Assembly (NCBI GenBank): GCA_965261595.1
Contig: CBDHDG010000005.1
Span: 1,055,736-1,119,735 of the forward strand
Reading direction: 5' to 3'
From: a bacterium
GTDB taxonomy: Bacteria; UBA8248; JACPRG01; G963555815
DNA length: 64,000 nucleotides
The notes under the pieces are model-generated. The model saw nothing but the letters and a program-made list of their open reading frames with translations, was not told where the DNA came from and ran no database searches. The translations under genes were made by a program, and so were the position numbers. This document shows positions 13-43,816 of this stretch, piece after piece. Position 1 is the stretch's first letter. Each line of letters opens with the position of its first letter.

Positions 13-3000
13 GTGCTCTTCCTGAAGCGCTACGGCCGGGCCATGCGCCGCCGGGCCGGAGCCGGCGGCCCGCCCGCCATGCTGGCCCTGCTGCAAAAGA
101 TCGCGGCCCTGGAGCCCTCCCACACGAAGCGATCCGAGTCCCAGGTCCGCCTCCAGCAGTTCTCCACGCCCCTGGGCCTCGCCTATGCGGCCTTGCAGGC
201 GGCCGCCATCCGGCCGGGCGACATCGTGCTCGAACCCAGCGCCGGGACCGGGATCCTCGCCGTCATGGCCGAGTGCGCCCTCGGGGCCGGCGGCGAAGGC
301 GCGCTCCATCTGAACGAGATCGCCGGGGCCCGGGCCGGCCTCCTGGCCCGGCTCTTCCCCAAAGCCGCGGTGACCGGGTTCAACGCCGAGGCCATCGCCG
401 ACCGTCTCCCGGCCGTCCGGCCGACCGTGGTGCTCATGAATCCGCCGTTCTCCGCGAGTCCGGGGGTGCATCGCATCCGCCATGACGCTGACCTGCGCCA
501 CCTGCGCTCGGCCTTCGCCATGCTGGGGCTTGGGGGCCGGCTCGTGGCCGTCACCTCGGCGGGCTGCATGCCCGGGGACAGGGTCTGGAAGGACGCCTTC
601 GAGCGCCTCGATCCCCCGGCCCGCGTCGTCTTCTCCATGGCCATTGACGGCCGGGCCTATGCCAGGCGCGGGACCACCTTCGACACCCGCCTGACCGTGC
701 TCGACCGGAGCGGGGACCGCGAGCATGCCGCGATCGATCCTGCGGCCCGGGCGGACAGCTCCGCCGAGCTCCTCGCCGCGGTCATGACGCGGGTTCCGGC
801 GCGCCTCGCCACTGGCGCTATCGAGATCCCGGATACAGCCGCTCCGATCCGGGACCTTTTCGGCGACACGGCCCCGTTCAAGTCAAAAGAGCGCAAGGCC
901 ACGGCCGCGGCCGCCCACCGGCCGGCCGAAGACAAGGACCGCCGTCACGACTGGGGGCCTGTGTCCGAGCTCGCGTATGCGACGGCCCCGGTCTCCGGCG
1001 ATGCCCCCGCCGGCTCCGAGACCGCTACCGGCCCCTATGCGCCCTGGAAGCCGGGCATTGTCCATGTTCCGGGCGCCGTCGTCCATCCCACGCCCCTGGT
1101 CCAGTCCGCGGCCATGGCCGCCGTCCCGCATCCCGGCCCGTCCTACCGTCCGGTGCTGCCGGAGCGCGTGGTCACCGGCGGGCTCCTGTCCGACGCCCAG
1201 ATCGAGAGCGTCGTCCTGGCCGGCGAGGCCCACAACCGCCACCTCTCCGCCCGCTACCGCATCGGCTCGGGCTGGGAGACGGTCCACCGCTGCAACGACG
1301 ATGATGCCGGGGTCCGTACCACCGGCGAGACCGAGGACGGCGAGGCGCTCTCCGAGACGGTGCGCTTCCGTCGCGGCTGGATGCTGGGCGACGGCACGGG
1401 ATGCGGCAAGGGCAGGCAGGTCGCCGGGATCCTCCTCGACAACCGGCTCCGCGGAAGGAAGCGGGCCCTGTGGCTCTCGCAGTCCGACAAGCTCGTGGAG
1501 GACGCCCGCCGGGACTGGGCCGCCCTCGGGGGGAACGAGGACGACGTGATCCCCTTGGGCAAGTTCCGCCAGGGAGCGGAGATCCCGCTCCCGGAGGGCG
1601 TCCTGTTCGCGACCTACGCCACGCTGCGCTCGCCGGCCCGCCAGGGCAAGGCCTCGAGGCTCGAGCAGATCGTCTCCTGGCTCGCGGGGGGAACGGAAGA
1701 AGACCAGCGTCACGCCTTCGACGGCGTGATCGTGTTCGACGAGGCCCACGCCATGGCCAACGCGGCCGGCTCCAAGGGAGCGCGCGGGGAGGTCAAGCCC
1801 TCGGCCCAGGGACGGGCCGGACTCAGGCTTCAGAACGCGCTGCCCGACGCCCGCGTTCTCTACGTCTCGGCCACGGGCGCCAGCACCGTGCCCGGCCTCT
1901 CCTACGCCGGACGCCTCGGCCTCTGGGGAGCGGGGGAGACGCCCTTCGAGACCCGGGGGGATTTCGTGTCGGCCATGGAGGCTGGAGGCGTCGCCGCCAT
2001 GGAGGTGGTCGCCAGGGACTTGAAAGCCCTCGGGCTCTACCAGGCCAGGGCCCTGGCCTATGACGGGGTGGAGATCGACATCCTGCAGCACCCGCTGGCG
2101 CCTGAGCAGCGGCGCATCTACGACGCCTATGCAGGCGCCTTCAAGGTGATCCACGCCAACCTCCAGGACGCGCTCGAGGCCACCGGCGTCATGCAGGGAG
2201 ACTCGACGCTGAACAGGAACGCCAAGTCCGCGGCCCTGAGCGCCTTCGAGGGGGCGAAACAACGCTTTTTCGGCCACCTGCTGACCGGCATGAAGTGCCC
2301 GTCCCTGATCCGCGCCGTCGAGGCCGATCTCGATGCCGGCCGGTCGGCCGTGATCCAGCTTGTCTCCACGGGCGAGGCCCTGATGGAGCGCCGCATCGCC
2401 GAGATCCCCGCGTCCGAATGGGATGACCTCTCCATCGACCTCACGCCCAGGGAATACGTTCTCGATTTCCTGGCCCACGCCTTCCCGGTGCAGCTCCAGG
2501 AGCCCTTCACCGACGAGGAAGGCAACCTCATGAGCCGGCCCGTGTTCGACACCGACGGCAACCCCGTGCTCTGCCAGGAGGCCCTGGCCAAACGCGAGGC
2601 CCTGATCGGGAAACTGGCCTCCCTTCCGCCCGTGCAGTCGGCCCTGGACCGGATCCTCCACCACTTCGGCCACGAGGCCGTGGCCGAGGTCACGGGCCGG
2701 TCCCGCCGGGTGCTCAGGATCGCGGACGGCCGGGGCGAGCGCCTGGCGCTGCGCAGCCGGCCCGCCTCCGCAAGCCTGACCGAGACCGCCGCCTTCATGG
2801 ACGGGGAGAAGAAGATACTGGTTTTCTCCATGGCCGGCGGCACGGGGCGCAGCTACCACGCGGATCTTGCATGCGGCAACACCGCGCGCCGGGTCCACTA
2901 CCTGCTCGAGCCGGGCTGGCGGGCCGATCAGGCCATACAGGGGCTGGGCCGCACCCACAGGACCCACCAGGCGTCGGCCCCCGTGTTCCGGCCCGTGACC

Positions 3001-4254
3001 ACGGACGTGAAGGGCGAGAGGCGGTTCATCGCCACCATCGCGAGAAGGCTCGACTCCCTCGGGGCCATCACCCGGGGCCAGCGGGACTCCCAGACCGCCA
3101 TGGCCGGCGATGACGCGGCGCTGTTCCGCGAGAGCGACAACCTGGAGAGCCCCTACGCCAAGGCGGCGTTGAGAAGGTTCTACATTGCGCTGTGGCGCGG
3201 CCGCATCCCGGGCTGGTCCCTCGGCCGCTTCGAGGAGGCCACCGGCCTCGCCCTCACCTGGGAGGGAGCGCTCAAGGACGACCTGCCGCCCATGCCCAGG
3301 TTCCTGAACCGCCTGCTGGCGCTGCCCATCGACGAGCAGAACGCGCTCTTCGCCGAACTGGAGTCCCTCATCGCGGAGAACGTCGAGCAGGCGATCGAGG
3401 CCGGCGCCCATGACATCGGCGTGGAGACCCTGCAGGCCGACTCGCTCGCGGTGGCCGGCCGCGAGACCCTCTACACCCACCCCGGGACCGGGGCCGCGAC
3501 CGATCTCGTCGAGATCCTCCTCCGCGACCGGCTGGAGCCGACCCCGGCGGACGCGGCGCTCGAGATCGGGACCCAGGGCGGGGACAGCCGGCCTGAACTC
3601 GTCGTCAACAGCCGCTCGGGACGGGGGGCCGTTGTCCTGCCCGCGCCGTCCAGGATGCTCGACGACGGCGGGGTGCAGGAGCGGGTGCGCCTCCTGCGGC
3701 CCACGGCCCGGGAAGCCATGGCCAGGGCCGAGCTCGAGGCCTCGAACTGGCGCAGGGCCTCGGAGGGGGAGTGGCGTTCCCGCTGGGAGGAGGAGATCGC
3801 CGGCCTGCCGACGCATACCGAGTCCCGCTTCTGGCTCGTCACCGGGCTGCTCCTGCCGATCTGGGACCGGCTCGGAATGGAGAACATGCGCGTGCGCCGG
3901 CTGTTGACCGACGCCGGCGAGGCGATGATCGGCCGCGCGCTCGACGCCGAACAGGTACGGGCCGCGCGCACCTCTTTCGGCCTTGCCGGCGGTCCCGGCA
4001 TGACCCCCCTTGAGACCTTCGAGGCGGTCATGGGGCGAGGCGCGTCCTTCGGCCTCGCGAACGGCTGGCGCCTCGCGCGCCGGCGCATCATGGGGGCCGA
4101 CCGCGTCGAGATCGAGGGTCCCGTTGACGGCGACATCGCCGCGCTCAAGCGCATGGGGTGCATCGTCGAGATCGTCTCCTGGCGCTCACGCCTCTTCGTC
4201 CCCGACGCTGGCGTGCTCGAACGCGTCATCGAGCGCTGGCCCCTCGCGGCCTGA
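13..4254 (+). CDS. Strawberry notch-like protein (methyltransferase-like domain + P-loop NTPase + helicase C-terminal domain); true start may lie upstream of the window
   Basis: Motifs QQFSTP, VLEPSAGTG and MNPPFS (MTase fold); GDGTGCGKGRQ (Walker A); FDEAH; QGLGRTHRTHQ. Confidence 0.88.
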   Translation: MLFLKRYGRAMRRRAGAGGPPAMLALLQKIAALEPSHTKRSESQVRLQQFSTPLGLAYAALQAAAIRPGDIVLEPSAGTGILAVMAECALGAGGEGALHLNEIAGARAGLLARLFPKAAVTGFNAEAIADRLPAVRPTVVLMNPPFSASPGVHRIRHDADLRHLRSAFAMLGLGGRLVAVTSAGCMPGDRVWKDAFERLDPPARVVFSMAIDGRAYARRGTTFDTRLTVLDRSGDREHAAIDPAARADSSAELLAAVMTRVPARLATGAIEIPDTAAPIRDLFGDTAPFKSKERKATAAAAHRPAEDKDRRHDWGPVSELAYATAPVSGDAPAGSETATGPYAPWKPGIVHVPGAVVHPTPLVQSAAMAAVPHPGPSYRPVLPERVVTGGLLSDAQIESVVLAGEAHNRHLSARYRIGSGWETVHRCNDDDAGVRTTGETEDGEALSETVRFRRGWMLGDGTGCGKGRQVAGILLDNRLRGRKRALWLSQSDKLVEDARRDWAALGGNEDDVIPLGKFRQGAEIPLPEGVLFATYATLRSPARQGKASRLEQIVSWLAGGTEEDQRHAFDGVIVFDEAHAMANAAGSKGARGEVKPSAQGRAGLRLQNALPDARVLYVSATGASTVPGLSYAGRLGLWGAGETPFETRGDFVSAMEAGGVAAMEVVARDLKALGLYQARALAYDGVEIDILQHPLAPEQRRIYDAYAGAFKVIHANLQDALEATGVMQGDSTLNRNAKSAALSAFEGAKQRFFGHLLTGMKCPSLIRAVEADLDAGRSAVIQLVSTGEALMERRIAEIPASEWDDLSIDLTPREYVLDFLAHAFPVQLQEPFTDEEGNLMSRPVFDTDGNPVLCQEALAKREALIGKLASLPPVQSALDRILHHFGHEAVAEVTGRSRRVLRIADGRGERLALRSRPASASLTETAAFMDGEKKILVFSMAGGTGRSYHADLACGNTARRVHYLLEPGWRADQAIQGLGRTHRTHQASAPVFRPVTTDVKGERRFIATIARRLDSLGAITRGQRDSQTAMAGDDAALFRESDNLESPYAKAALRRFYIALWRGRIPGWSLGRFEEATGLALTWEGALKDDLPPMPRFLNRLLALPIDEQNALFAELESLIAENVEQAIEAGAHDIGVETLQADSLAVAGRETLYTHPGTGAATDLVEILLRDRLEPTPADAALEIGTQGGDSRPELVVNSRSGRGAVVLPAPSRMLDDGGVQERVRLLRPTAREAMARAELEASNWRRASEGEWRSRWEEEIAGLPTHTESRFWLVTGLLLPIWDRLGMENMRVRRLLTDAGEAMIGRALDAEQVRAARTSFGLAGGPGMTPLETFEAVMGRGASFGLANGWRLARRRIMGADRVEIEGPVDGDIAALKRMGCIVEIVSWRSRLFVPDAGVLERVIERWPLAA

Positions 4255-7111: not shown

Positions 7112-7443
7112 GAGACCGGGCGTTCCCCGGGCGCTTACGTTTCGAGCGGCCGATCGCAGCGGCAGGATAAGCGCAGACACCGGATGGAGATCTGACACGA
7201 TCTCATCTCGGCCCCGGACGGACAGGTGCCCGACGGAAGAGGTGGCAGCGCAAATTCGAAGTTGAATTAGGCACCGACATACCGGAGCCTAACAAACATT
7301 GGATGCAGAAGAAGATGTTGGAATCAAGAAAGCCAGACAAATACTGGGTGGAGGGTTTGTTGGTGTATTTTGACCGACCCTTTCCTCACCAAGATTCGGA
7401 TCCTCGCAGAGCCGGGTTTGAAGTTGGTCAACGGATTGAAGAT

Positions 7444-33510: not shown

Positions 33511-33649
33511 GGCAACGGCAACGCCGCGTGCGTCGCGCGAAGCAGAGCCGTCATCCGAGCCGGACCTCACGCCCGCTCTCCGACAGTCCGAGCCCGACGT
33601 GCGGCGTCTCGGTGAACCGCCCGCCCGCGAACCCGTAAGCCGCCTCGGC

Positions 33650-33990
33650 GTCGAGACGCCGGAAGACTGGGTTGACAAGGCGGCCAAGCGATCCCAGAAG
33701 GACGTGGATGCGCGCTGGACCAAGAAGCACGGCGGGAACTATCATGGTTACATGAACCGTATCAACGTGGACCGCAGGCATAAGCTGATCCGACGCTATC
33801 ACGTGACGGACGTGGCTGTGCACGACAGCCAGGTGGTGGAAGACATTCTCGATCCCGACAACCAAGCCGCGGACGCATGGGCGGACAGCGTCTACCAGTC
33901 GGCGGAGATCAAGGCCGTGCAGTAGGAGAAGGAAGGGACTAAAGAGCCGGACCCACCGCAAGGGCCGCCGCAACAAGCCGCCGAGCGCAC
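33650..33990 (+). mobile_element. IS5-family transposase fragment
   Basis: QKDVDARWTKKHG..HGY..INVD..HKLIR...VHDSQ...WADSVY; in-frame stop at 33923-33925. Confidence 0.75.
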
Positions 33991-34007
33991 GATGAAAGGA
34001 TAGCCGT

Positions 34008-35054
34008 ATGCCGATTTACCGCATCGATAACAACAAAATTCTTCCGATCGAACGCACAACGTTTGCGCAGCAAAGCTTGCGGGAGCGGCATGATCTCCAG
34101 GCTCTTCTGAAATCCCAGATCGATGTGATTTCTCCGGATACGCTGATCGTGGCTGAGGAATTTAGCGACTGGGAGGACAGTCGGCGGCGCATTGATTTGC
34201 TGGGCATCGACAAAGGCGCCAACCTCGTCGTGATCGAACTAAAGCGCACGGAAGATGGCGGATACATGGAACTGCAGGCCATTCGCTATGCCGCGATGAT
34301 CTCCACGCTAACCTTTGACGAGTTGGTGACGAAATACGAGGGCTACCTGAGTAAGAGCAACATTGAGCAGGACGCGAGAGAAAGTCTGCTCGAATTCCTG
34401 GACTGGAATGATTTGAATGAACAGGCATTCGGCCAGGAGGTCAAAATCGTCCTCGCCTCGGCCGAATTTTCAAAAGAGCTGACGACGGCGGTGATGTGGC
34501 TGAACGATCTTGGGCTGGATATCCGCTGCGTCCGAATGCACCCTTATGTAAGTGACGGGCAGACCTTCATGGACGTCCAAACCGTCATCCCAATACCGGA
34601 AGCGGCCGATTATCAAGTCCGGATTCGGCAGAAGAAACAAAAAGAGCGGGAATCGAGACAAGGCGCACGAGATTTCAGCAAGTACGACATAAGCATCGCC
34701 GGTAAACGATACCGGGCACAAAACAAACGCAAGATGATGTTTCTGCTTGTTTCAGAGGTGCTGGCGAACGGCGGCACACCGGAACAAATCATGGGCGCCA
34801 TCCCCAAGAGAAAATTAAAAGTCTTCGAGGGTACGCTGGATGCGGAGCAGGTGAAAGAACAGATCATGAAGGATGACGGCGGGGGAGCCGTGCCACGGTC
34901 GAAGCGTTTCTTCTGCGAAGAGGGTGAACCCTTTCATGTCGAGAACAAAACTTATGTCCTGTCCAAGCAATGGGGAAACCCCACACACGACGCCGCGAAG
35001 AAGTTGGCCGAGATGTTTCCTAGCCTAAAAATCGATTACAAGCAGACCGTGTAA
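34008..35054 (+). CDS. NucS-like PD-(D/E)XK nuclease with an additional C-terminal domain
   Basis: LRERHDLQ, RRIDLLGID...VVIELKR, ELQAIRYAA; low GC. Confidence 0.8.
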   Translation: MPIYRIDNNKILPIERTTFAQQSLRERHDLQALLKSQIDVISPDTLIVAEEFSDWEDSRRRIDLLGIDKGANLVVIELKRTEDGGYMELQAIRYAAMISTLTFDELVTKYEGYLSKSNIEQDARESLLEFLDWNDLNEQAFGQEVKIVLASAEFSKELTTAVMWLNDLGLDIRCVRMHPYVSDGQTFMDVQTVIPIPEAADYQVRIRQKKQKERESRQGARDFSKYDISIAGKRYRAQNKRKMMFLLVSEVLANGGTPEQIMGAIPKRKLKVFEGTLDAEQVKEQIMKDDGGGAVPRSKRFFCEEGEPFHVENKTYVLSKQWGNPTHDAAKKLAEMFPSLKIDYKQTV

Positions 35055-35074
35055 GCTGTGGGGTTCGTATCAGT

Positions 35075-35410
35075 TCATTTCAATTCGTGCAGCTTCTGAT
35101 CCATAACGTAGTTCTGGTCCCGCGTTCGTTCCTTGGTCGGATCGAACGCGGCGTAGATGTCTTCGGACAGGGGCGTTTTCGACAGCAGGTCGCAAACACG
35201 ATCAATGGGTGAACGACCGTTCAGGGCCGTATGCGGTCGATGCCAATTGTAGAAGTGCTGCCATTCGTCCAGCTGCTGTTGAAGATCGGCTGCCTTCCGA
35301 TCGACGGTTGACCAGAACTCGTCCAGATCGGTCCGCTGGCTTCGCTCGACCTTGCCGTTCAGATCGGGTGACCGAGGCTTGATCGGACGGAACTTGATCG
35401 CCCATTCCAT
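35075..35410 (-). mobile_element. IS481-family transposase 3' fragment
   Basis: PIKPRSPDLNGKVERSQRTD..EF, YNWHRPHTALNGRSP. Confidence 0.75.
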
Positions 35411-35551
35411 GGGGCGTTGCTGGACGCTGGAGAAATTGAGATTTTGGGGTTTTGAGAAATTGAGGCTTTTGAGGTTTTGCCGTCCGAGGTTCTACAGGGG
35501 GCGGCGCAGGCGGAATGACGGGTCCAGGCCCACAGACGCGGACACCCCATC

Positions 35552-35956
35552 ATGAAACTCAGGAGGATCGAATACACCGATTTGAGCTCCAAGCAGAAGG
35601 AGGTCTTCAATTTTCACAAAATTGCGGGAAAGCTCTCCGAATACGGATATAACTGCATCAAGCTCGCGGACGACTGGCAGGGAGCAGACTTTCTCGCGTG
35701 TCACAAAGATGGCGGTACGCTGAAAGTGCAGTTGAAAGCCAGACTCACGATCTCAAAAAAATATGTTGGAAAATCGCTCTGGATGGCATTTCCGATTTAC
35801 CAGGAGTGGTACCTGATCGAGCATGAAGAGCTGGTTCGCTTGGCCGAGAAGCACACCAGTTGGCTGACCACGAAGTCCTGGCAGGAGTGCGGAAACTATA
35901 GCTCGGCAAATCCGAGTCAGCGTTTCGCTGAGGCGCTAACCAGATCACGGCTATGA
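35552..35956 (+). CDS. Small putative PD-(D/E)XK-fold protein (134 aa)
   Basis: DDWQGADFLA...LKVQLK resembles a D...(Q/E)xK motif; low GC. Confidence 0.6.
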   Translation: MKLRRIEYTDLSSKQKEVFNFHKIAGKLSEYGYNCIKLADDWQGADFLACHKDGGTLKVQLKARLTISKKYVGKSLWMAFPIYQEWYLIEHEELVRLAEKHTSWLTTKSWQECGNYSSANPSQRFAEALTRSRL

Positions 35957-36698
35957 AAGCGTGGCTCACAGATAATCATCCGATCCGGCCCGGTGGGGGG
36001 GACGAGCTCCGAATCAGCGTCCCCTGGTGCGGCTGAGCCAGCCAGGTTTGAAGTCCCGACGCTTTTTTCGGATCATTCTCAAGATGCGTAGCCGTGAGGC
36101 CCTTCGATAGCCACGCCATAGCGCCGTCCATACGCCCATGATTCCCCCCCTTCAACGCCCATAGCTCGGCTCAGACGAACGTTTACCGCTTGCCCCTGGC
36201 CTATACTTTTAAACCACATCCGCTTCAACGATTCAACCCTGTCTGCGGGGGATGTTGCGCTTAATGTCCTCTTGGAGCCGCAGACACAGGAGCGGCGATT
36301 GCGTTAAGAACCGCCACTCTAAAAGGCTTGGGGGCTAGTCGCGCCCACGGGCCACGCCGGGGGGGGCACGCTGGAAATCTCTATGAAACTGTAGGTTGGC
36401 TTATTCTGGCTATTCTGGTCAAGCACTGGGGGGTGACGGTCTTGCAACCCCCCCTCCTTTGTCAGGGGGAGGGGGGGCGGAATCGCAAGAGCAGAAAACC
36501 GTGCACGCTGCGCCTTCTCGGTTGACACTCCGGGTATCGAACCGCCCTATCGCTTTGTCATCCCTGTGGCACCAGCAATGCCCTCGAATGCTTTAATCGA
36601 GTGGCGATAGAGGGAGACCGCTAAGCAAGAGGGGGTCGCATTGGCGGCGGCTATCTGATCAAGCATCTCCCGACCGTCCGCCTTTCCTTTGGCCCCCG

Positions 36699-38102
36699 TC
36701 CCCCGCTCTAGGGTTTTGTTGGACACTCGATTGATCCATGATTCATGGAGAAAGGGGTGTCGCGATGAACGAACAAAAGCAAGAGGGGGCTTTGGCGGAG
36801 GGCGCCCGCAGGGCGAACGGAGCCAAGGCCCCAGGGCATCGCAGTGAGCGGGGTCGGTTCTCCTGCCAGCGCAAGCGGGAGGCGGTCCTGCGTCTTTTGC
36901 GGGGCGAGAGCCTGGAGACGCTCTGCCGCGAGTTGGGCACGACAGCGGCTCGGCTTTCCGCCTGGCGCGAGGCGTTCCTTCGCGGGGGCGAGGCGGCGCT
37001 CAAAGCCCGCCCGGCGGATGAGCGGGCCGAGGAGAACGCCCGGCTCAAGGCCAAGGTGGGCGAACTCACGATGGAGGGCGAGGTCCTGCGGGAGAAGATC
37101 GACCGCCTGGAGGCCGGCCGCCCTTTAGCCGGCAGGAGGTGGAGGCGATGAGTCAGGCCCGCTTCACCTCCACGGGCAGAGCCTACGGCCTGAAGCGGGT
37201 GTGCGCCCTTTGGGGCTTGGCGCGCTCCACGGTCTACGCGCAACGGCGGCGAGAGGCGGTCCCCGTTCATGAACGCCCCACGCCCAATAAGCGCGGCCCT
37301 GTGGGCCCGTGCACCGATGCGGAACTCCTCGGCCACATCCGGCAGGTCCTGGAGGACTCTCCCTTCCATGGCGAGGGCTACCGCAAGGTGTGGGCGAGGC
37401 TGCGCTTCGCGGGCATCCGCACCAGCAAGGAGCGGGTGCGTCGCCTGATGCGGGAGGCGGGGCTTCAGGCCCCCCACCGGGTGGGCAAACCCCGAGGTCC
37501 CAAGGCCCACAACGGGACCATCCGCACCGAGCGGCCCGACCGAATGTGGGGCACGGACATGACGACGACGGTGACCACCGAGGAGGGGGTGGCCTCGGTG
37601 TTCGTGGCGGTGGATCACTGCTCGGTGGACTGCGTGGGGATCCATGCGGCCAAGAGCGGCAACCGCTTCGAGGCCCTGGAGCCGATCCGGCAGGGGGTCG
37701 CCGAGCGCTTCGCCGGCTTGGAGGCGGACGTCGCCGAGGGGCTTAAAGTTCGTCACGACCACGGCCCCGCCTATCTGTCCGATGACTTTCAGCGGGAGAT
37801 CACCTACCTGGGCATGACCAGTTCGCCCAGCTTCGTGCGGGCGCCCGAGGGAAATGGCTACTGTGAGTGGTTTATCCGCATCTTGAAGGAGAATCTCCTG
37901 TGGGTGCGCTCTTTCGCCACCGTAGAGGAACTGCGGTGGGCGCTGCTTGAGTTCAAGAACCTGTACAACCATCATTGGATTCTCGAGGGCTACGGCTACC
38001 GAACGCCGGCCCAGGCAAGGCAGGAAAAACTCGCTCAAGTTGCGGAGGCCGCATGAGGTCGAATACCCTCACCCGAGTGTCCAATAACCCAGGGGCGGTC
38101 CA
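36699..38102 (+). mobile_element. IS3-like insertion sequence with orfA 36765-37151 and orfB 37148-38056
   Basis: Imperfect IRs sharing TTGGACACTCG / CGAGTGTCCAA, right end ..GCGGTCCA; WGTDMT, RHDHGPAY, PEGNGYCE; ATGA coupling; left tip degenerate and no TSD seen. Confidence 0.88.
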
Positions 38103-38362
38103 CCCGCTTCCCGGATCAACTTATAGCCATGCTCACTGAGAATGATATCCCGAAACAGGGAATGGACTTTTCATGACCGTCTGCCGACCCGATCGTTTCC
38201 TTTTCCTTTCTGATTGTCGATCTCACGCTGGACAGGACAGCAGACAATTAGATGAACCTCGTCGAACTCGGCCCATACGGACCAATCGAGCTCTTCCAAG
38301 GCACGACACTGGATAAAGAGATTTGTATCAGGAAACAAATGAAGAATCTTCACGAGAACCAT
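38103..38362 (-). pseudogene. PIN-domain protein, N-terminal part, with an internal stop and truncated by the IS
   Basis: HLFPDTNLFI...PVQREIDNQK are PIN motifs; TGA at 38171-38173, after which the frame continues (KVHSLFRDII...) to the IS end. Confidence 0.7.
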
Positions 38363-38606
38363 TCCCTAATACCGGGTATCGACCCAATGGGCATATCGGC
38401 CGGGGCAGGGATAACCTCTCTTGTTCTTATGCGGGTTTAGCGAGGCAGCAGCTCGCTTCTTACGTGAAAATCGTTTGCCGCATAAGCTACATTTATAGAC
38501 ATAGGTCGGCCCGCTCGAAAGACCGGAATTACGGCCTCGGCGAGCGTGGCCCGGTCTGCGCCGCTTTGTCCTCGTAGGTGTGCTGTTGCCCCACGCCGAC
38601 CGTGAG

Positions 38607-39821
38607 CTACCGCCGATTTGCCGTAGGCGGGATTCTGACCGGGCCGGCAGGTGTCAATTCGACTGCGAAACGGGGACTGAAGGCCTGATCGGTGACTCTT
38701 GCTCCCTGAATGCGATCCACCTGGTAGCTGCGGTGTTCGTTCTTGTCCAGATTGTGAGCATGAAGGATGATATTGCCTTCGCTGGTACGGCGAAGTGAAT
38801 AGGGCTCGATGCGTCTTGTGGAACCCTGATAGTCCAGGTCGACGCAAAGCCTGCTCGAAGCCGCGAAGCGGATGGTTTCGAGAGAGGACCGAGCCGTGCC
38901 GGAAACCGGCAGACGCAATGTGCGGTCGCGGATAATCTCTTCATCCGGGGCTCCGACATAGGCGGCAGGAATCCGTGGTGCCGCGCCGCTTTTCAGCCAC
39001 GCAAAAAAGACCGGCAACTCGTCCCAAAATGTGACGAACGGCGGCAGGGCGGGCAACTGGTGCCCCAACATCTGATCCCAGTTGCCTTCCAGCATGGGAC
39101 GCTGCGGTTCGAGTTGAGCGAGAACAGGAAGGTCCATGCCCTTGAACTCGCACTTCTGGCGGAGGACGTCGAGAAGTACAGCAGCGGCGGGCCGCGCCTC
39201 GGCATTGCGAAACAAGTTGATCACATCGTACAAATCGCGGGGCCGCGCCCGATCGGCAAGCGCCCTGACCTTTTCGCCGAACGCCTCTTCGTAGGCATAG
39301 GACTGGATGGTGATACCTTCGTCCGGGGCAGCGCTGTAGGGATGGAAGACTTGTGATTGAACCGGCGGCAGCACCACGCGTTCATCGGCTGTGAGATCGA
39401 GCTTGACCCGCGGCATGTTTTGGCCGCGCGGCGACACCGGACCCTGATATCCTATCCGTCCCGAACAGGATTCGCGGCCGCGCGGGTTTTGGTAAACGTC
39501 GAATTGCTGAAAATCCGGCGGCAGTTCGATACCCGTCTGGTCGTAAATGCGATCACCTATCTCCGAGAACACGGATTTCAGGAAATCTTCATTGATATGC
39601 GATGGATCGACGAGCGTGAAATCGAGGTCTTCGGAAAACCGGTAGGTCTCGAAAAAGCATTTTTTCAGGCAGGTGCCGCCCTTGAACAACCAGCTTTCAC
39701 CGACTGCCTCGTGATTGTAGATGCCCCACAGCAACCAGCCGAGAACGTAATCTTTCTCGACCACATGGGGCGTGAGACCCAGAGCGGTCGCGGCATCGAT
39801 GATCTCGCGCTTGTCAATCAT
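38607..39821 (-). CDS. abiEii: AbiEii-type nucleotidyltransferase toxin fused to a WYL domain; Zn-finger tail to 38366 in a shifted frame
   Basis: VEKDY, FKGGTCLKK..YRFSEDLDF, EKVRAL..RPRDLYD; C-terminal LDY..RRIEPYSL..RSYQVDRI. Confidence 0.85.
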   Translation of the reverse strand: MIDKREIIDAATALGLTPHVVEKDYVLGWLLWGIYNHEAVGESWLFKGGTCLKKCFFETYRFSEDLDFTLVDPSHINEDFLKSVFSEIGDRIYDQTGIELPPDFQQFDVYQNPRGRESCSGRIGYQGPVSPRGQNMPRVKLDLTADERVVLPPVQSQVFHPYSAAPDEGITIQSYAYEEAFGEKVRALADRARPRDLYDVINLFRNAEARPAAAVLLDVLRQKCEFKGMDLPVLAQLEPQRPMLEGNWDQMLGHQLPALPPFVTFWDELPVFFAWLKSGAAPRIPAAYVGAPDEEIIRDRTLRLPVSGTARSSLETIRFAASSRLCVDLDYQGSTRRIEPYSLRRTSEGNIILHAHNLDKNEHRSYQVDRIQGARVTDQAFSPRFAVELTPAGPVRIPPTANRR

Positions 39822-40626
39822 GCGCGCGTTCCGTTGCCCAGCTTAGTGGGACCCAGAGACGCCATTTCGAGATCAGGCGGGAGCATTCCAATGAGGGGTC
39901 GAGCTTGGCGTTTCCGTTCGTCAGATGCACCCGGCAAGCCTCGGCCAAAGCCGCCGCGTCGGGATGTTTTTCAATCAGGAAACCAAGCCGTTTGAAGACC
40001 GCACCGTTGCCAAGCGTTTCGGCATAGTTGATCAGCATGTCGTCATTCCGGTCAGCACGCTTCAGGTAGCTGCTCAGACAATCGGCCACGTGCTGGCTTC
40101 CACCGCCGATGGAGGGATCGTCAAGAAGATCGATCATCGTGCGGTGAACATCAGACACCAGAATCTTTGACTGGCTGCGCCAAACCGCTTTGGTGCCGAA
40201 GAGTTTTCGTTCCTGTATATGGCACAGTATGAACTGCGCTCCATGGCGCGTTTGATGCTTTTCGCGCACTGGCTGCGCCGTCATGACGAGAATCTGCCGG
40301 AACATCTGCTCGGTGAGATCCCAATGTTCCGCGGCGGTCCACCCACCGATATAGGCGGGCGCATACAAAGCCGGGACCAGCACCCAGGGATCATCCAGAA
40401 CCTGCTCGCTTTCGAGCGAATCCAGTTGGGCAGCGGCGTAAGCCCCCGGCCCGACGCGCCTCAGCCAGCCCTGGCTGGTCCAGCGTGAGAGCAACTTGGC
40501 GGCCTCCGGCCGTCCGATGGAAAGCGCGGAAACGACATCATCAATTCGAATAATGTCATTGGCCCGCCGGATCACGGCTGCGAGTTTGCGCCTGCCCCGC
40601 GGTATCGATGTAGCCGACGTTCTCAT
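39814..40626 (-). CDS. abiEi: AbiEi-type (type IV TA) antitoxin / transcriptional regulator
   Basis: wHTH-like N-terminus (LLSRWTSQGWLRRVGPGAY), YIGGWTAAEHWDLTEQ, SDVHRTMID, KRLGFL; overlaps the toxin start. Confidence 0.85.
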   Translation of the reverse strand: MRTSATSIPRGRRKLAAVIRRANDIIRIDDVVSALSIGRPEAAKLLSRWTSQGWLRRVGPGAYAAAQLDSLESEQVLDDPWVLVPALYAPAYIGGWTAAEHWDLTEQMFRQILVMTAQPVREKHQTRHGAQFILCHIQERKLFGTKAVWRSQSKILVSDVHRTMIDLLDDPSIGGGSQHVADCLSSYLKRADRNDDMLINYAETLGNGAVFKRLGFLIEKHPDAAALAEACRVHLTNGNAKLDPSLECSRLISKWRLWVPLSWATERAHD

Positions 40627-40672
40627 ATCACATCCACCAATAATCACAAAAAATAGAATTTTCTGATATTGA

Positions 40673-40753
40673 AATATGCTACTTTAAGTATGTGCGGTCA
40701 AGTGGATAGTATATCGTGTATGCGAAAAATCCCGATTTAGATGATTTTGCGCA
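40673..40753 (-). promoter_or_regulatory. Putative abiE promoter (TTGACC-17bp-CATATT) plus upstream inverted repeat
   Basis: -35 at 40701-40696, -10 at 40678-40673; TGCGAAAAATC...GATTTTGCGCA at 40721-40753; AT-rich island. Confidence 0.5.
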
Positions 40754-40915
40754 TCTCCATGAAGCCCGATCAACGACTGCTTGTTGAACCGGAAGACCGG
40801 CGGATGCCACCAAGTGGAAGAGTTTCCTGGGTGCTGCTTCTCGATGTCAACTTGGTGGTAAGGCGAACCGAATGCTCCCGAACGGCCGAATCTCCTGTCG
40901 CGACTACCTCAGACC

Positions 40916-43816
40916 TTAAAGCCCCAGATCGTGCTCGATCCGCTTCGGCGCGGGGCTCTTCTCCATGTCCGGCATCGGCGTCCGCTCCCGCGTCTTCGGT
41001 ATGGCGCCCTCCCTGTCAAGACTGTAGGTCACCTCCGGTCCGGCTTCCGGCGTCTTCGCCTTCTCCGGCGCGACCGCCTCAAGCGCCGCGACCCGCTCGC
41101 CGGTGACGGCCTCAAGCTGTTCCTGCAGGGCGGCCTTGTCGTCGGTCACCAGTTCCGCCCGGTCCCGCGCCCGGCTGATCTCCACGTAAAGCGTCTTCTG
41201 ATTGGTGAGATTGGGGTGGTTCGCCTCCATCGCGGCGATGACCGTGTCCACCGTCCGGCCCTGGAACGCATGCACGGTCGAGGCCCAGGCGCGATCGATA
41301 TGGCGCAGTTGCGGATCGCCCGCCTTCATGTCGAGCATGCGCCCGTCCTCCAGACGGAAGGTCACGCGGCCGTCCTTCACGCTCGCGACCTCGGCGGTCT
41401 GGCTGTTGACCAGACCGAGCCCCGCGTCGTTGCGGGTCCAGCGGATGCGGTCGCCCTGGCGCAACTCCAACTGCTCGACCTTGTAGACCTCGACCCCGCC
41501 GCTCCGCGCCGCGAGACGGCCGGGCTCCCAGAGGACGGATTGCCCGTCCTTGCCTTCAAGCCTAACCGCGCGTGCCTCGTGATCGACCCCGGCCACGCGC
41601 AACTCGTCGCCCTTCTCGACGCCGAGACGCTTGTAGGGGCGGTGGAACGCCACCACGTCGCCCGGGCCGTAGTTGGCCGCGAGCGACTTCTCGGCATGAG
41701 TGAAGCCGTGGGAGACCAGTCGCCCGGACTTCATGGCCGGGCCATGGACCATGCCGTCGCGGACCAGGCGATCGCGGACGATGGCGTTGATCTCCTCCCG
41801 AAGCGTATGGCTCGGCGCCATCAGTCCGGCCCTGGCGCGCGCTTCCGGCGAGATCCTGAGCCACCGTGCGGCGGCCGCGCCGGCGAGATTGTCGGGCTTC
41901 ACCTCCGCCACGTTGGAGCCGAGCTTCTCGAAGGCTTTCCTAACGTTGCCCGCGAGGCTCGCCTCGACCGCGGCTTTCAGGTCGGGGTCGCGCTGGCGCA
42001 TGATCTCCTCCATGGTCGCCGTCTTCATGCCGGCTTGCTGCAATTGCGCGAACGGCTTGCCTGCATCCACCGCGTCGAGCTGCTTCGCATCGCCCACCAG
42101 CACGACCCGGGGAAGGCGCAAGGTGTTGGCGATCCTCAGGAGGTTGCGGGCTTGGACCGTGGAGGCGAGGGATCCCTCGTCCACCACCAGCACGGTCTTC
42201 CGATAAGCGGCTCGCATCTCCCTCTCGCCCTTCTTCGTCAGCCGTCCCTCGCCCACCCCGGCGTTGCTGGCAAGGAAGCGTTGCAGGGTCTCGCTCTTGA
42301 TCCCGGCCTCCGTTTCCAGGGTCCGCGCGGCCGAGGCCGAGGGCGCGAGGCCCTTGACCTCGTAGCCCCGCTTCTTGAGGAGCGCGCGGGCGCGGCTCAG
42401 CATGGTGGTCTTGCCGGTCCCGGCATAGCCCTGCACGCCGATAACGCGGTCCCTGTCCGACAGGATGAGTTTGACGGCGTCCCGCTGGCCTTGTGTCAGC
42501 GGACCCTTTCTGAGGGCCTTGTCCACGGCCCGGGCGCGCATCGGGACCGCTTCCCGTCCCTGGCCGGCCTCCACCAGGGCGATCGTTTCCCGCTCGTCGG
42601 CCACGGCCCTGCTCGTGGTGAGCATGTCCTTTGCCCCTGGCGGGCCGGCCGCGTGCAGCGTTCCGGCCTTCTCCAGCCTGCCCACTTCCCGTTCCGCCTC
42701 CGGCATGGCCACCGCGCCGGGGTCCCAGGCGAGCGCGCCGGCGAGCAGATCGGCGCGTGAGAACACCGCCTCGCGCTCGGCGAGATGCGCCACGGCCCAT
42801 TCCACGGCTTCCCCGGCCAGCCGCCGGTCCCGAGACGTCTCGCGAGCCGCACCGGCGCCTTCCCGGCCGGCGTCCCGCGATACGGCGCCCTTCGAGATCG
42901 CTTCGGCCGCAAGGGCCTTTGCGTCGAACCCGAGATGGGCGGCCTGCTTCTCCCAGATCCCCCGCAACTCGGCCTTGTCCACGTCCCGCTTGCGGGCCCG
43001 GGTCATGAGCGCCGCCCGCTGGGCGAGGCGCTGGTTCTTTGCCGGTGTGTCCACGCCCCGTTCGGCCATGGCCGCCTCGATCTCCGCCCGCCGTGTCGAG
43101 AACGTCTCGATCACCTCGCGGGGAACGCCCGCGATCTCGAATCGCCCGTCAGCATGGGTCTTCTCGATCCCGTAGCCGAGCCTGCCCAGATTGCGCGCCA
43201 GTTCGCTTCGGTACATGGCGCCGATCAGCATCTTCGAGGCATAGAGCTTCTCGTTGGACATGGTCCGCCACTTGCCGTCCGCGCCCTGCACCATGTTGGC
43301 GATCACCGAATGGGTATGAAGCAGGGGATCGAGATTGCGCGAGGCGTCGTGGCGAAAGGTGGCGGCGATCATCTTCTGATCGCCCTTCTTTACCATACGT
43401 CCGGTCTCCGGGTCCTTCATGCGGGTCTCGGCGACGTTCCTCTCGACCCAGTCGAGGGCGCGCTTCACGGCCCGGTCATGGGCCTCGACGATGCGCTTGT
43501 CGCCGCCGACGAGCGCGGCGAGGGAGACGGACTTGGGGGCGGAGAAGGTGAGATCCCGCCCGGGCCGGTGCTCCAGGGCCCCATCGGGCCCCCTGCGTCC
43601 GAGCTGTTGTCCGGAGCCGTCGGGCGCCTTGCCCTCCAGCACCGCCCGGAAGAGGTCCGGATCGACCGGGCCGGAGAGGCCGTGATCCTCCGCGCCCTTG
43701 CCGGCCCAGGCGCTCGCTTCCCTGTGGGCCGGGTCGTCCTTCGCGTAGTAGCCGTCCCGCTCGTAGTAGCCCGCGCCCTGGGACGGGGCCGAGACAACGC
43801 CGATCGAGGCGACCAT
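40916..43816 (-). CDS. traI: MOB_F relaxase-helicase (TrwC/TraI)
   Basis: YYERDGYY, DLTFSAPKSVS, HDASRNLDPLLHTH, GYAGTGKT, VDEGS, YVEISRAR. Confidence 0.96.
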   Translation of the reverse strand: MVASIGVVSAPSQGAGYYERDGYYAKDDPAHREASAWAGKGAEDHGLSGPVDPDLFRAVLEGKAPDGSGQQLGRRGPDGALEHRPGRDLTFSAPKSVSLAALVGGDKRIVEAHDRAVKRALDWVERNVAETRMKDPETGRMVKKGDQKMIAATFRHDASRNLDPLLHTHSVIANMVQGADGKWRTMSNEKLYASKMLIGAMYRSELARNLGRLGYGIEKTHADGRFEIAGVPREVIETFSTRRAEIEAAMAERGVDTPAKNQRLAQRAALMTRARKRDVDKAELRGIWEKQAAHLGFDAKALAAEAISKGAVSRDAGREGAGAARETSRDRRLAGEAVEWAVAHLAEREAVFSRADLLAGALAWDPGAVAMPEAEREVGRLEKAGTLHAAGPPGAKDMLTTSRAVADERETIALVEAGQGREAVPMRARAVDKALRKGPLTQGQRDAVKLILSDRDRVIGVQGYAGTGKTTMLSRARALLKKRGYEVKGLAPSASAARTLETEAGIKSETLQRFLASNAGVGEGRLTKKGEREMRAAYRKTVLVVDEGSLASTVQARNLLRIANTLRLPRVVLVGDAKQLDAVDAGKPFAQLQQAGMKTATMEEIMRQRDPDLKAAVEASLAGNVRKAFEKLGSNVAEVKPDNLAGAAAARWLRISPEARARAGLMAPSHTLREEINAIVRDRLVRDGMVHGPAMKSGRLVSHGFTHAEKSLAANYGPGDVVAFHRPYKRLGVEKGDELRVAGVDHEARAVRLEGKDGQSVLWEPGRLAARSGGVEVYKVEQLELRQGDRIRWTRNDAGLGLVNSQTAEVASVKDGRVTFRLEDGRMLDMKAGDPQLRHIDRAWASTVHAFQGRTVDTVIAAMEANHPNLTNQKTLYVEISRARDRAELVTDDKAALQEQLEAVTGERVAALEAVAPEKAKTPEAGPEVTYSLDREGAIPKTRERTPMPDMEKSPAPKRIEHDLGL

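Follow-up and report, generated by a model that had tools for sequence, protein, structure and literature searches.

The 64,000-nucleotide (nt) stretch analysed here, hereafter the window, comes from a bacterium of the GTDB lineage UBA8248 (GenBank assembly GCA_965261595.1, contig CBDHDG010000005.1, positions 1,055,736 to 1,119,735 of the forward strand), and contains at positions 38103 to 40753 an AbiE-type toxin-antitoxin/abortive-infection locus. The locus lies on the minus strand, downstream of a TrwC-type relaxase gene, and comprises an AbiEi antitoxin/repressor gene with a promoter-like upstream region, an AbiEii toxin gene whose product carries a C-terminal WYL domain, an out-of-frame tail with a zinc-finger-like motif, and the first part of a PIN-domain gene that ends at an insertion sequence (IS). 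An initial annotation, made from the sequence alone, had described the same features, all of which were found again in place, and had proposed a toxin gated directly by a nucleic-acid ligand with a ribonuclease (RNase) as partner. Our analysis partly supports that interpretation, and identifies the window locus as a decayed copy of an AbiE variant that is catalogued but has yet to be characterised.

The AbiEii gene as now read (38607..39821, minus strand) encodes 404 amino acids (aa) and ends at a TAG (38607-38609) created by a frameshift. Its DUF1814 nucleotidyltransferase domain (about 39030-39734) was recognized by the Pfam AbiEii model (PF08843; residues 30-264; E-value (E) 4.8e-37), and all invariant columns of the toxin alignment A1 are kept in the window protein, including GG...SEDLDF, KLDLT, and EK..R...RPRDLYD, so that both the domain and the conserved motifs of an AbiE toxin are present. 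The C-terminal region, taken for a WYL domain in the initial annotation, is confirmed as such by Pfam, by two PADLOC WYL models, and by the fold of a structural model. The Pfam match (PF13280; residues 314-376, about 38694-38882; E 5.2e-7) reaches 30.0 bits (cut-off 21.8), the PADLOC WYL models match at E 1.8e-8 and 1.5e-7, and the PADLOC AbiEii model PDLC02317 (396 positions, E 9.1e-197) covers the WYL region as well. The domain contains the sequence HRSYQVDRI, which we take to be a WYL motif of the RxY/FRxDRI type. An AlphaFold model was made of P0004, a relative 81% identical to the window toxin, from a 69-sequence alignment (mean predicted local distance difference test (pLDDT) score 86.6, predicted template modelling score 0.76); in this model the linker at residues 393-433 is disordered and the tail reaches a pLDDT of about 93. 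Foldseek searches with the transferase core returned MenT3/TglT (6j7q, E 8e-8) and MenT4, and a profile search matched the core to 6y56 (E 5.5e-4). The WYL part returned PafBC, DriD (including forms bound to single-stranded DNA (ssDNA)), CapW, and BrxR, with E between 3e-4 and 3e-3.

The AbiEi gene (39814..40647, minus strand) precedes the toxin gene in one operon, its stop overlapping the AbiEii start by 8 nt. It reads as 277 aa from a GTG start, but the real start is probably the ATG at 40626, giving 270 aa. The protein was matched by Pfam AbiEi_4 (E 3.8e-7) and, over residues 12-271, by the PADLOC AbiEi model PDLC02271 (E 1.3e-126), and so qualifies as an AbiEi with an N-terminal winged helix and a C-terminal domain of the COG5340 type; a match to Pfam AbiEi_1 (E 6.6e-4, 20.4 bits) fell below the cut-off of 22.2, and NCBIfam gave no match for the toxin, the toxin relative, or AbiEi. 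Upstream lies a promoter-like site, TTGACC-17-CATATT (40701-40673, minus strand), with a 12-nt inverted repeat just upstream of it (40720-40731 and 40743-40754). The overlap and the inverted repeat named in the initial annotation are thus present, but its promoter is less secure: a single promoter-like match before AbiEi is no more than expected by chance (mean of 1.3 in shuffled sequences), although the -35 and -10 positions align in three relatives, in which the inverted repeat is partly conserved. By analogy with published AbiEi autoregulation, the site and the repeat together (40673..40754) are a candidate AbiEi operator.

To place the toxin among its relatives, we scored 8,000 candidates from a word-seeded search, and at least 7,895 database proteins match it (7,895 of the 8,000 at E<=1e-3). 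Among the best 120 matches (67-89% identical), 102 have a precomputed WYL match and 85 contain CxxC..H..C past residue 400. Gene neighbourhoods were compared at 86 loci, 80 of them from contigs representing one genome per species, three from plasmids, and three from metagenomes; the 80 span Acidobacteriota, several classes of Pseudomonadota, Desulfobacterota-type lineages, Planctomycetota, Bacteroidota, Gemmatimonadota, Chlamydiae, candidate phyla, and others. Toxins of 464-495 aa with an in-frame tail are encoded at 55 of the 86 loci. No tail match was found in 27 loci, of which three are cut by contig ends and four encode proteins of about 280 aa that also have no WYL domain; the other tail-less toxins are mostly of 394-415 aa, with three of 429-450 aa. 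In the remaining four loci the toxin is disrupted. This toxin subfamily is therefore large and taxonomically broad, and combines AbiEii with WYL, followed in about two thirds of its members by a disordered basic linker and a CCHC finger. The four relatives with neither WYL nor finger (L067, L076, L078, and L081) are 47-53% identical, end at about 275-282 aa, and come from metagenome-assembled genomes of Legionellaceae, Parachlamydiales, Chlamydiae, and Rickettsiales. In the closest plasmid loci (Rhizobium and Thiodictyon), the downstream genes are unrelated and have no Pfam match. Of the 77 loci with at least 700 nt of flank, 76 have AbiEi as the immediate upstream gene in the same orientation. 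Because the antitoxin is so consistently kept, the toxin is still antitoxin-controlled and not solely ligand-gated, contrary to the direct gating initially proposed.

In the window, the frame of the tail resumes after the toxin TAG with a basic stretch, continues as ...GPTYVYKCSLCGKRFSRKK...LNPHKNKRGYPCPGRYAHWVDTRY, and stops at 38366-38368. The out-of-frame linker and C-terminal CCHC finger occupy 38366..38612 (minus strand), with the finger core at about 38405-38491. Three-frame translations compared with the in-frame relatives locate the break at 38610..38618 (minus strand), and because full-length relatives have the tail in frame, it represents a net one-base shift at about 38613-38616, in agreement with the frameshift near 38615 that had been suspected. 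No start codon is present in the tail frame, and the finger is therefore silent in the window. A programmed frameshift was considered and rejected, given that start-less frame and the 55 loci with the tail in frame.

Four sequencing runs of one sample, probably the source sample of the window, gave Logan contigs that span 38078-39100 with no letter differing or missing. The frameshift is thus not an artefact of one assembler, although these contigs all come from that one sample, at depth 4-10. That the break is nonetheless a sequencing or assembly error, the toxin being full length in the organism, is highly improbable. It falls within a G/C-rich run of the low-complexity linker, and the toxins of two long-read-style assemblies of relatives also break in the linker; however, the contigs of all four runs match the window without gaps, and two independent breaks in the PIN gene next to it are in keeping with a locus in decay. 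The two relatives, L011 (a frame change) and L079 (a stop), break at about 7190-7420 of their loci, which would mean either that assemblies tend to be wrong in the linker or that the finger has been lost repeatedly.

The putative zinc ligands of the tail are well conserved. In the tail alignment A4 (46 sequences), the cysteines of the CxxC, C15 and C18, are invariant (46/46) and H35 and C43 occur in at least 90%, so that the CxxC...H...C ligands are present with finger-like spacing; matches to fingers in the PDB reached E 0.07-1. A search of 1.84 billion representatives with the tail profile gave 1,880 matches at E<=1e-3, 350 of them at E<=1e-10. Matches with several stretches resemble poly-C2H2 proteins. 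We scanned with Pfam the 39 single-stretch matches listed among the best 150, and AbiEii and/or WYL was found upstream in 27, the remaining 12 having no Pfam match. Because these 27 of 39 carry AbiEii and/or WYL, the finger is essentially specific to the AbiEii-WYL toxin family.

The tail stop is followed on the same strand by the remnant of a PIN_4-domain gene (38103..38362), which retains codons 1-86 of about 500. The initial annotation placed the start of this gene at an ATG 3 nt past the tail stop; that ATG, at 38362, is present and opens MVLVKILHLFPDTNLFIQ..., but alignment with relatives suggests GTG at 38353 as the real start. The gene had also been described as broken by a stop and an IS, and both breaks are there, a TGA in frame at 38171-38173 and an IS3-family element at about 38103. 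In tblastn searches, the full-length relatives P0125 and P0131 cover only their residues 1-86 and 1-83 on the window, and PIN homology stops at about 38096-38103, where the multi-copy element begins. Because an intact gene encodes about 500 aa, about 415 codons are missing, and they were found nowhere in the whole 6.17-Mb genome. The fragment scores 17.2 bits with Pfam PIN_4 (PF13638), below the cut-off of 21.9, and keeps only the first two of the four acidic PIN positions, so that it does not qualify as a PIN_4 nuclease; the full-length relatives qualify in both respects, scoring 32-37 bits and having acidic residues that are invariant in alignment A2.

A search with the 87-residue read-through of the remnant found 202 proteins, most of which are about 500 aa long and begin with a PIN_4 domain; we call this family PIN-500. 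In a structural model of P0125 (pLDDT 83.7), the PIN domain resembles those of SMG6, Nmd4, and AF0591 and is followed by a coiled coil and by beta-sandwich domains that have generic matches only. The family is absent from PADLOC, its profile gave no match in a sequence search of the PDB, an ESM Atlas search with the C-terminal part returned only unnamed clusters scoring below 0.9, and on plasmids tblastn detected no more than four PIN proteins, all of them distant.

Linkage of the PIN gene to the toxin is confined to the nearest clade. With the PIN fragment, tblastn found nothing significant near 83 AbiEii-WYL loci whose toxins are 45-67% identical, and AbiEi and AbiEii lie upstream of PIN-500 in three of 34 metagenome PIN-500 loci. 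The other 31 have different neighbours, a varied set of mobile-element or defence-like genes that includes SNase, ORF6N, DUF4062, DUF4238, integrases, IS110, and conjugation genes. In all three linked metagenome loci the PIN gene is shortened (L085, about 256 aa; L112, about 78-93 aa; L114, about 62 aa). An intact operon was found in G025, with AbiEi of 270 aa, a toxin of 483 aa, a PIN protein of 507 aa, and 12 nt between toxin and PIN. Adjacent toxin and PIN genes are thus known in five cases, of which G025 is intact and the window, L085, L112, and L114 are truncated in PIN. At 6001-7622 of L112, an unrelated metagenome contig, an intact AbiEii-WYL-finger gene is followed by a cut PIN gene and by an IS3-like transposase gene on the opposite strand, an arrangement that mirrors the window.

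Within the class of the window, PIN-500 was found in two of 51 genomes and the AbiEii-WYL toxin in the same two; a genome search by phylum gave the same 51 genomes. In a 200-leaf tree of toxin cores, from which the partial L114 was left out, all nine PIN-linked leaves fall in one clade of 84 and all known PIN-less loci fall outside it. Gene context is known for only nine of these 84 leaves (75 without context), and five of the PIN-linked labels (P0001/P0125, P0005/P0138, P0013/P0133, P0070/P0129, and P0104/P0181) were assigned from equal-sized longest contigs only; P0004/P0131 is the sole protein pair whose adjacency was confirmed on DNA. Of the two parts whose conservation was to be checked, the tail is therefore widely kept, but the PIN neighbour is restricted to the nearest clade and to 3/34 metagenome PIN-500 loci.

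These data bear on the proposal that, in intact relatives, WYL and finger form an allosteric sensor of phage or conjugative ssDNA, or of another nucleic-acid ligand, that switches on the transferase, with the PIN protein as a co-operating RNase effector in one three-part system. The modelled WYL fold resembles the ssDNA-sensing domains of DriD, CapW, PafBC, and BrxR, a ligand-sensing role is proposed for such fusions in the relevant passage of Makarova et al. 2014 (PMC4012209), and toxin and PIN genes stand together, 3-12 nt apart, in the window, G025, L085, L112, and L114. However, the near-constant presence of AbiEi means that ligand gating is not the sole control, natural members occur without the finger and some also without WYL, PIN is absent from the 83 more distant loci and AbiE from 31 of the 34 PIN-500 loci, PIN is truncated in four of the five adjacent cases, and the position beside a relaxase is not conserved. 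We regard this model as rather unlikely. The narrower claim that a G025-type operon of AbiEi, AbiEii-WYL-CCHC, and PIN-500 is a single defence operon, in which WYL and finger sense the invader's single-stranded nucleic acid and release a tRNA-modifying toxin while PIN is a second, RNA-cutting effector, is a speculative one that we judge quite unlikely; if true, it would be the first case in which the toxin of a toxin-antitoxin pair is shown to be under the direct control of a WYL sensor within its own chain. A functional link between toxin and PIN is possible in the nearest clade, but PIN-500 is more probably an independent module next to the toxin than a partner that it requires. PIN-500, which mostly occurs without AbiE and is absent from PADLOC, may be an undescribed stand-alone module.

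The TrwC-type relaxase/helicase gene (40916..43816, minus strand; Pfam TrwC E 2.6e-87, AAA_30 E 4.3e-50), which is context outside the system itself, is part of the conjugative element that carries the AbiE locus, and G+C content is 53-59% across the cargo block (33600-40800) versus 66-72% in the transfer genes. The initial annotation included in its proposal the placement right after the relaxase. A relaxase-like match was found near only one of the 86 related loci, and weakly, so this placement is incidental. The PIN remnant is ended by an IS3-family insertion sequence on the plus strand (36690..38102, ends approximate), which has overlapping orfA (36738-37151; Pfam HTH_Tnp_1) and orfB (37139-38056; HTH_21, rve, and rve_3), terminal inverted repeats, and multiple copies, as expected of this family. 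Logan contig depth rises from 4-10 in the flanking locus to more than 1000 at the junction with the element, 38103-38112, where many different flanks begin; for the element it is about 600-3800. No target-site duplication was seen around the element, which suggests an IS-mediated deletion.

Further features were seen in and beside the same block. A 111-aa remnant of a second DDE transposase (35075-35410, minus strand; rve_3 E 4.8e-17) indicates that the cargo block was struck by more than one IS. A 348-aa protein encoded at 34008-35054 (plus strand), within the low-G+C cargo block that also holds the AbiE pair, matches over its full length the PADLOC candidate defence family PDC-S11 (E 1.6e-135), with weak Pfam matches to NucS_C and HSDR_N. 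Just left of the IS, the non-coding region 36340-36500 (plus strand) contains runs of G and C (e.g. GGGGGGGG and CCCCCCCTCC) and short repeats.

Taken together, the locus is very probably an AbiE-type toxin-antitoxin or abortive-infection pair that is decaying and forms part of the lower-G+C cargo of a conjugative element. By analogy with characterised AbiE and MenAT systems, AbiEi would repress the operon, and it would bind the toxin and switch it off by induced auto-phosphorylation as in the studied homologues. Were this control to fail, the transferase would be expected to add nucleotides to tRNA 3' ends and translation would stop. Single-stranded nucleic acid is the most likely ligand of the WYL domain and the finger, which would tune or direct the transferase. 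The modular presence and absence of WYL and finger among relatives that are about 50% identical argues that both are accessory nucleic-acid-binding parts, and we lean slightly towards tethering or targeting to nucleic acid rather than an activating sensor. In the window itself, the finger is cut off by the frameshift, and the PIN gene, interrupted by a nonsense codon, breaks off at the IS3-family element and lacks about 415 codons. With the finger out of frame and the PIN gene destroyed, the proposed three-part system cannot operate here; AbiEi and the finger-less AbiEii-WYL toxin, a form that occurs naturally, may still be working. The window copy is thus broken, and gives its host nothing more than, perhaps, a plain AbiE pair.

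A rival explanation takes WYL and finger for a substrate clamp that would hold tRNA (or another RNA), either by its single-stranded 3' end or by its body, and would set the target range or processivity of the transferase without sensing infection. Relatives about 50% identical that have the core only, the core with WYL, or the core with WYL and finger fit such an accessory binding module, and classical C2H2 finger arrays, whose function is to bind nucleic acids, are also matched by the tail profile. A bacterial PIF1 helicase binds single-stranded substrates through its WYL domain, and the Cas13d accessory protein WYL1 likewise binds such substrates. On the other side, the MenT and AbiEii toxins characterised so far need no such domains to act on tRNA, according to passages of PMC7450476 and PMC10435456, and every solved WYL match found here is a sensor in a regulator. 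The clamp is a tentative alternative, with somewhat less than an even chance.

Several observations weigh against the reading of a decaying AbiE pair with accessory binding modules. All solved WYL matches are sensors of transcription factors, which favours sensing over tethering. The 3-12 nt spacing of toxin and PIN, and their joint presence in both genomes of the class that have either gene (2/51), argue for a real functional link in the nearest clade. The reads behind the frameshift are all of one sample, with a depth of 4-10. No Pfam zinc-finger or ribbon model reaches its cut-off on the tail, the best being Zn_ribbon_8 (20.0 bits versus 34.4). For this reason we call the tail finger-like and family-specific; the basic linker and CxxC..H..C tail stopping at 38366, as initially described, hold with respect to the conserved ligands and the in-frame relatives, but not as a finger recognized by Pfam. 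The roles given to WYL and finger are also drawn by analogy, and a search of a limited literature collection without supplements found no experimental study of the fused toxin, the finger, or the PIN partner.

That search bears on the claim that no characterised system has this architecture, which stands as far as experiments in the literature searched are concerned. The fusion itself was already on record: the passage of Makarova et al. 2014 (PMC4012209) on WYL domains lists WYL fused to an 'AbiGII-like nucleotidyltransferase (DUF1814)', the same two-domain architecture as the toxin here, with the same ligand-sensing role proposed, and PADLOC files it as AbiE. Because both are listed there, and because the PADLOC AbiEii model PDLC02317 spans the WYL region, neither the fusion nor the sensing idea is new. 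The CCHC finger and the PIN neighbour, unlike the fusion, receive no mention in that passage, and the newness here is confined to these two undescribed details of a catalogued fusion. AbiE and MenAT toxins are actively studied, and their trigger during infection is at issue. Thousands of AbiEii genes with a built-in WYL domain, usually followed by a finger, provide a test case for direct reading of a nucleic-acid signal versus choice of RNA target, and the survey yields an intact three-gene example (G025), relatives without finger or WYL as natural controls, and a new family of PIN proteins, about 500 aa long, for which PADLOC has no entry.

Compared with the AbiE systems of Lactococcus lactis and Streptococcus agalactiae, the locus has the same two overlapping genes with the antitoxin first, the same AbiEi domains, a DUF1814 transferase with the conserved motifs, and a promoter region with an inverted repeat. 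It differs in that the intact toxin carries about 200 additional C-terminal residues (WYL, linker, and CCHC finger), in that the nearest clade has a third gene, PIN-500, and in that the subfamily is known from genes alone. The AbiE of Mesorhizobium huakuii, considered as a possible studied member, was set aside because its abiEii is given as 0.7 kb in a passage of PMC8436566, which puts it outside this subfamily.

The best structural matches of the toxin core are the MenAT toxins of Mycobacterium tuberculosis (MenT3/TglT, MenT4, and MenT1; Foldseek E 8e-8 to 3e-6). Passages of PMC7450476 and PMC10435456 describe modification of tRNA acceptor ends by MenT toxins, and binding of AbiEi to AbiEii with induced auto-phosphorylation of AbiEii is described in parts of bioRxiv 10.64898/2026.01.19.700257 and PMC11375011. 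Chemistry at the tRNA 3' end and control by induced auto-phosphorylation are therefore likely common to MenAT and the system here, as far as the relevant passages of PMC11375011 go, whereas identity to MenT toxins is only 11-17%, these have neither WYL nor finger, and the MenT1 antitoxin is also different. Full-length PIN-500 proteins resemble the PIN_4 nucleases (the N-terminal PIN of YlaK/PhoH-like proteins; the SMG6/EST1A PIN fold) in their N-terminal 150 residues, which match Pfam PIN_4 and the PIN structures of SMG6, Nmd4, and AF0591, but they have no PhoH ATPase and carry a coiled coil and beta-sandwich domains instead. DriD, CapW, BrxR, and PafBC share with the toxin the SH3-like WYL beta-barrel fold and the RxY/FRxDRI-type motif; in these regulators the WYL domain is joined to a DNA-binding helix-turn-helix and controls transcription, whereas here it sits on a toxin enzyme in a protein with no helix-turn-helix.

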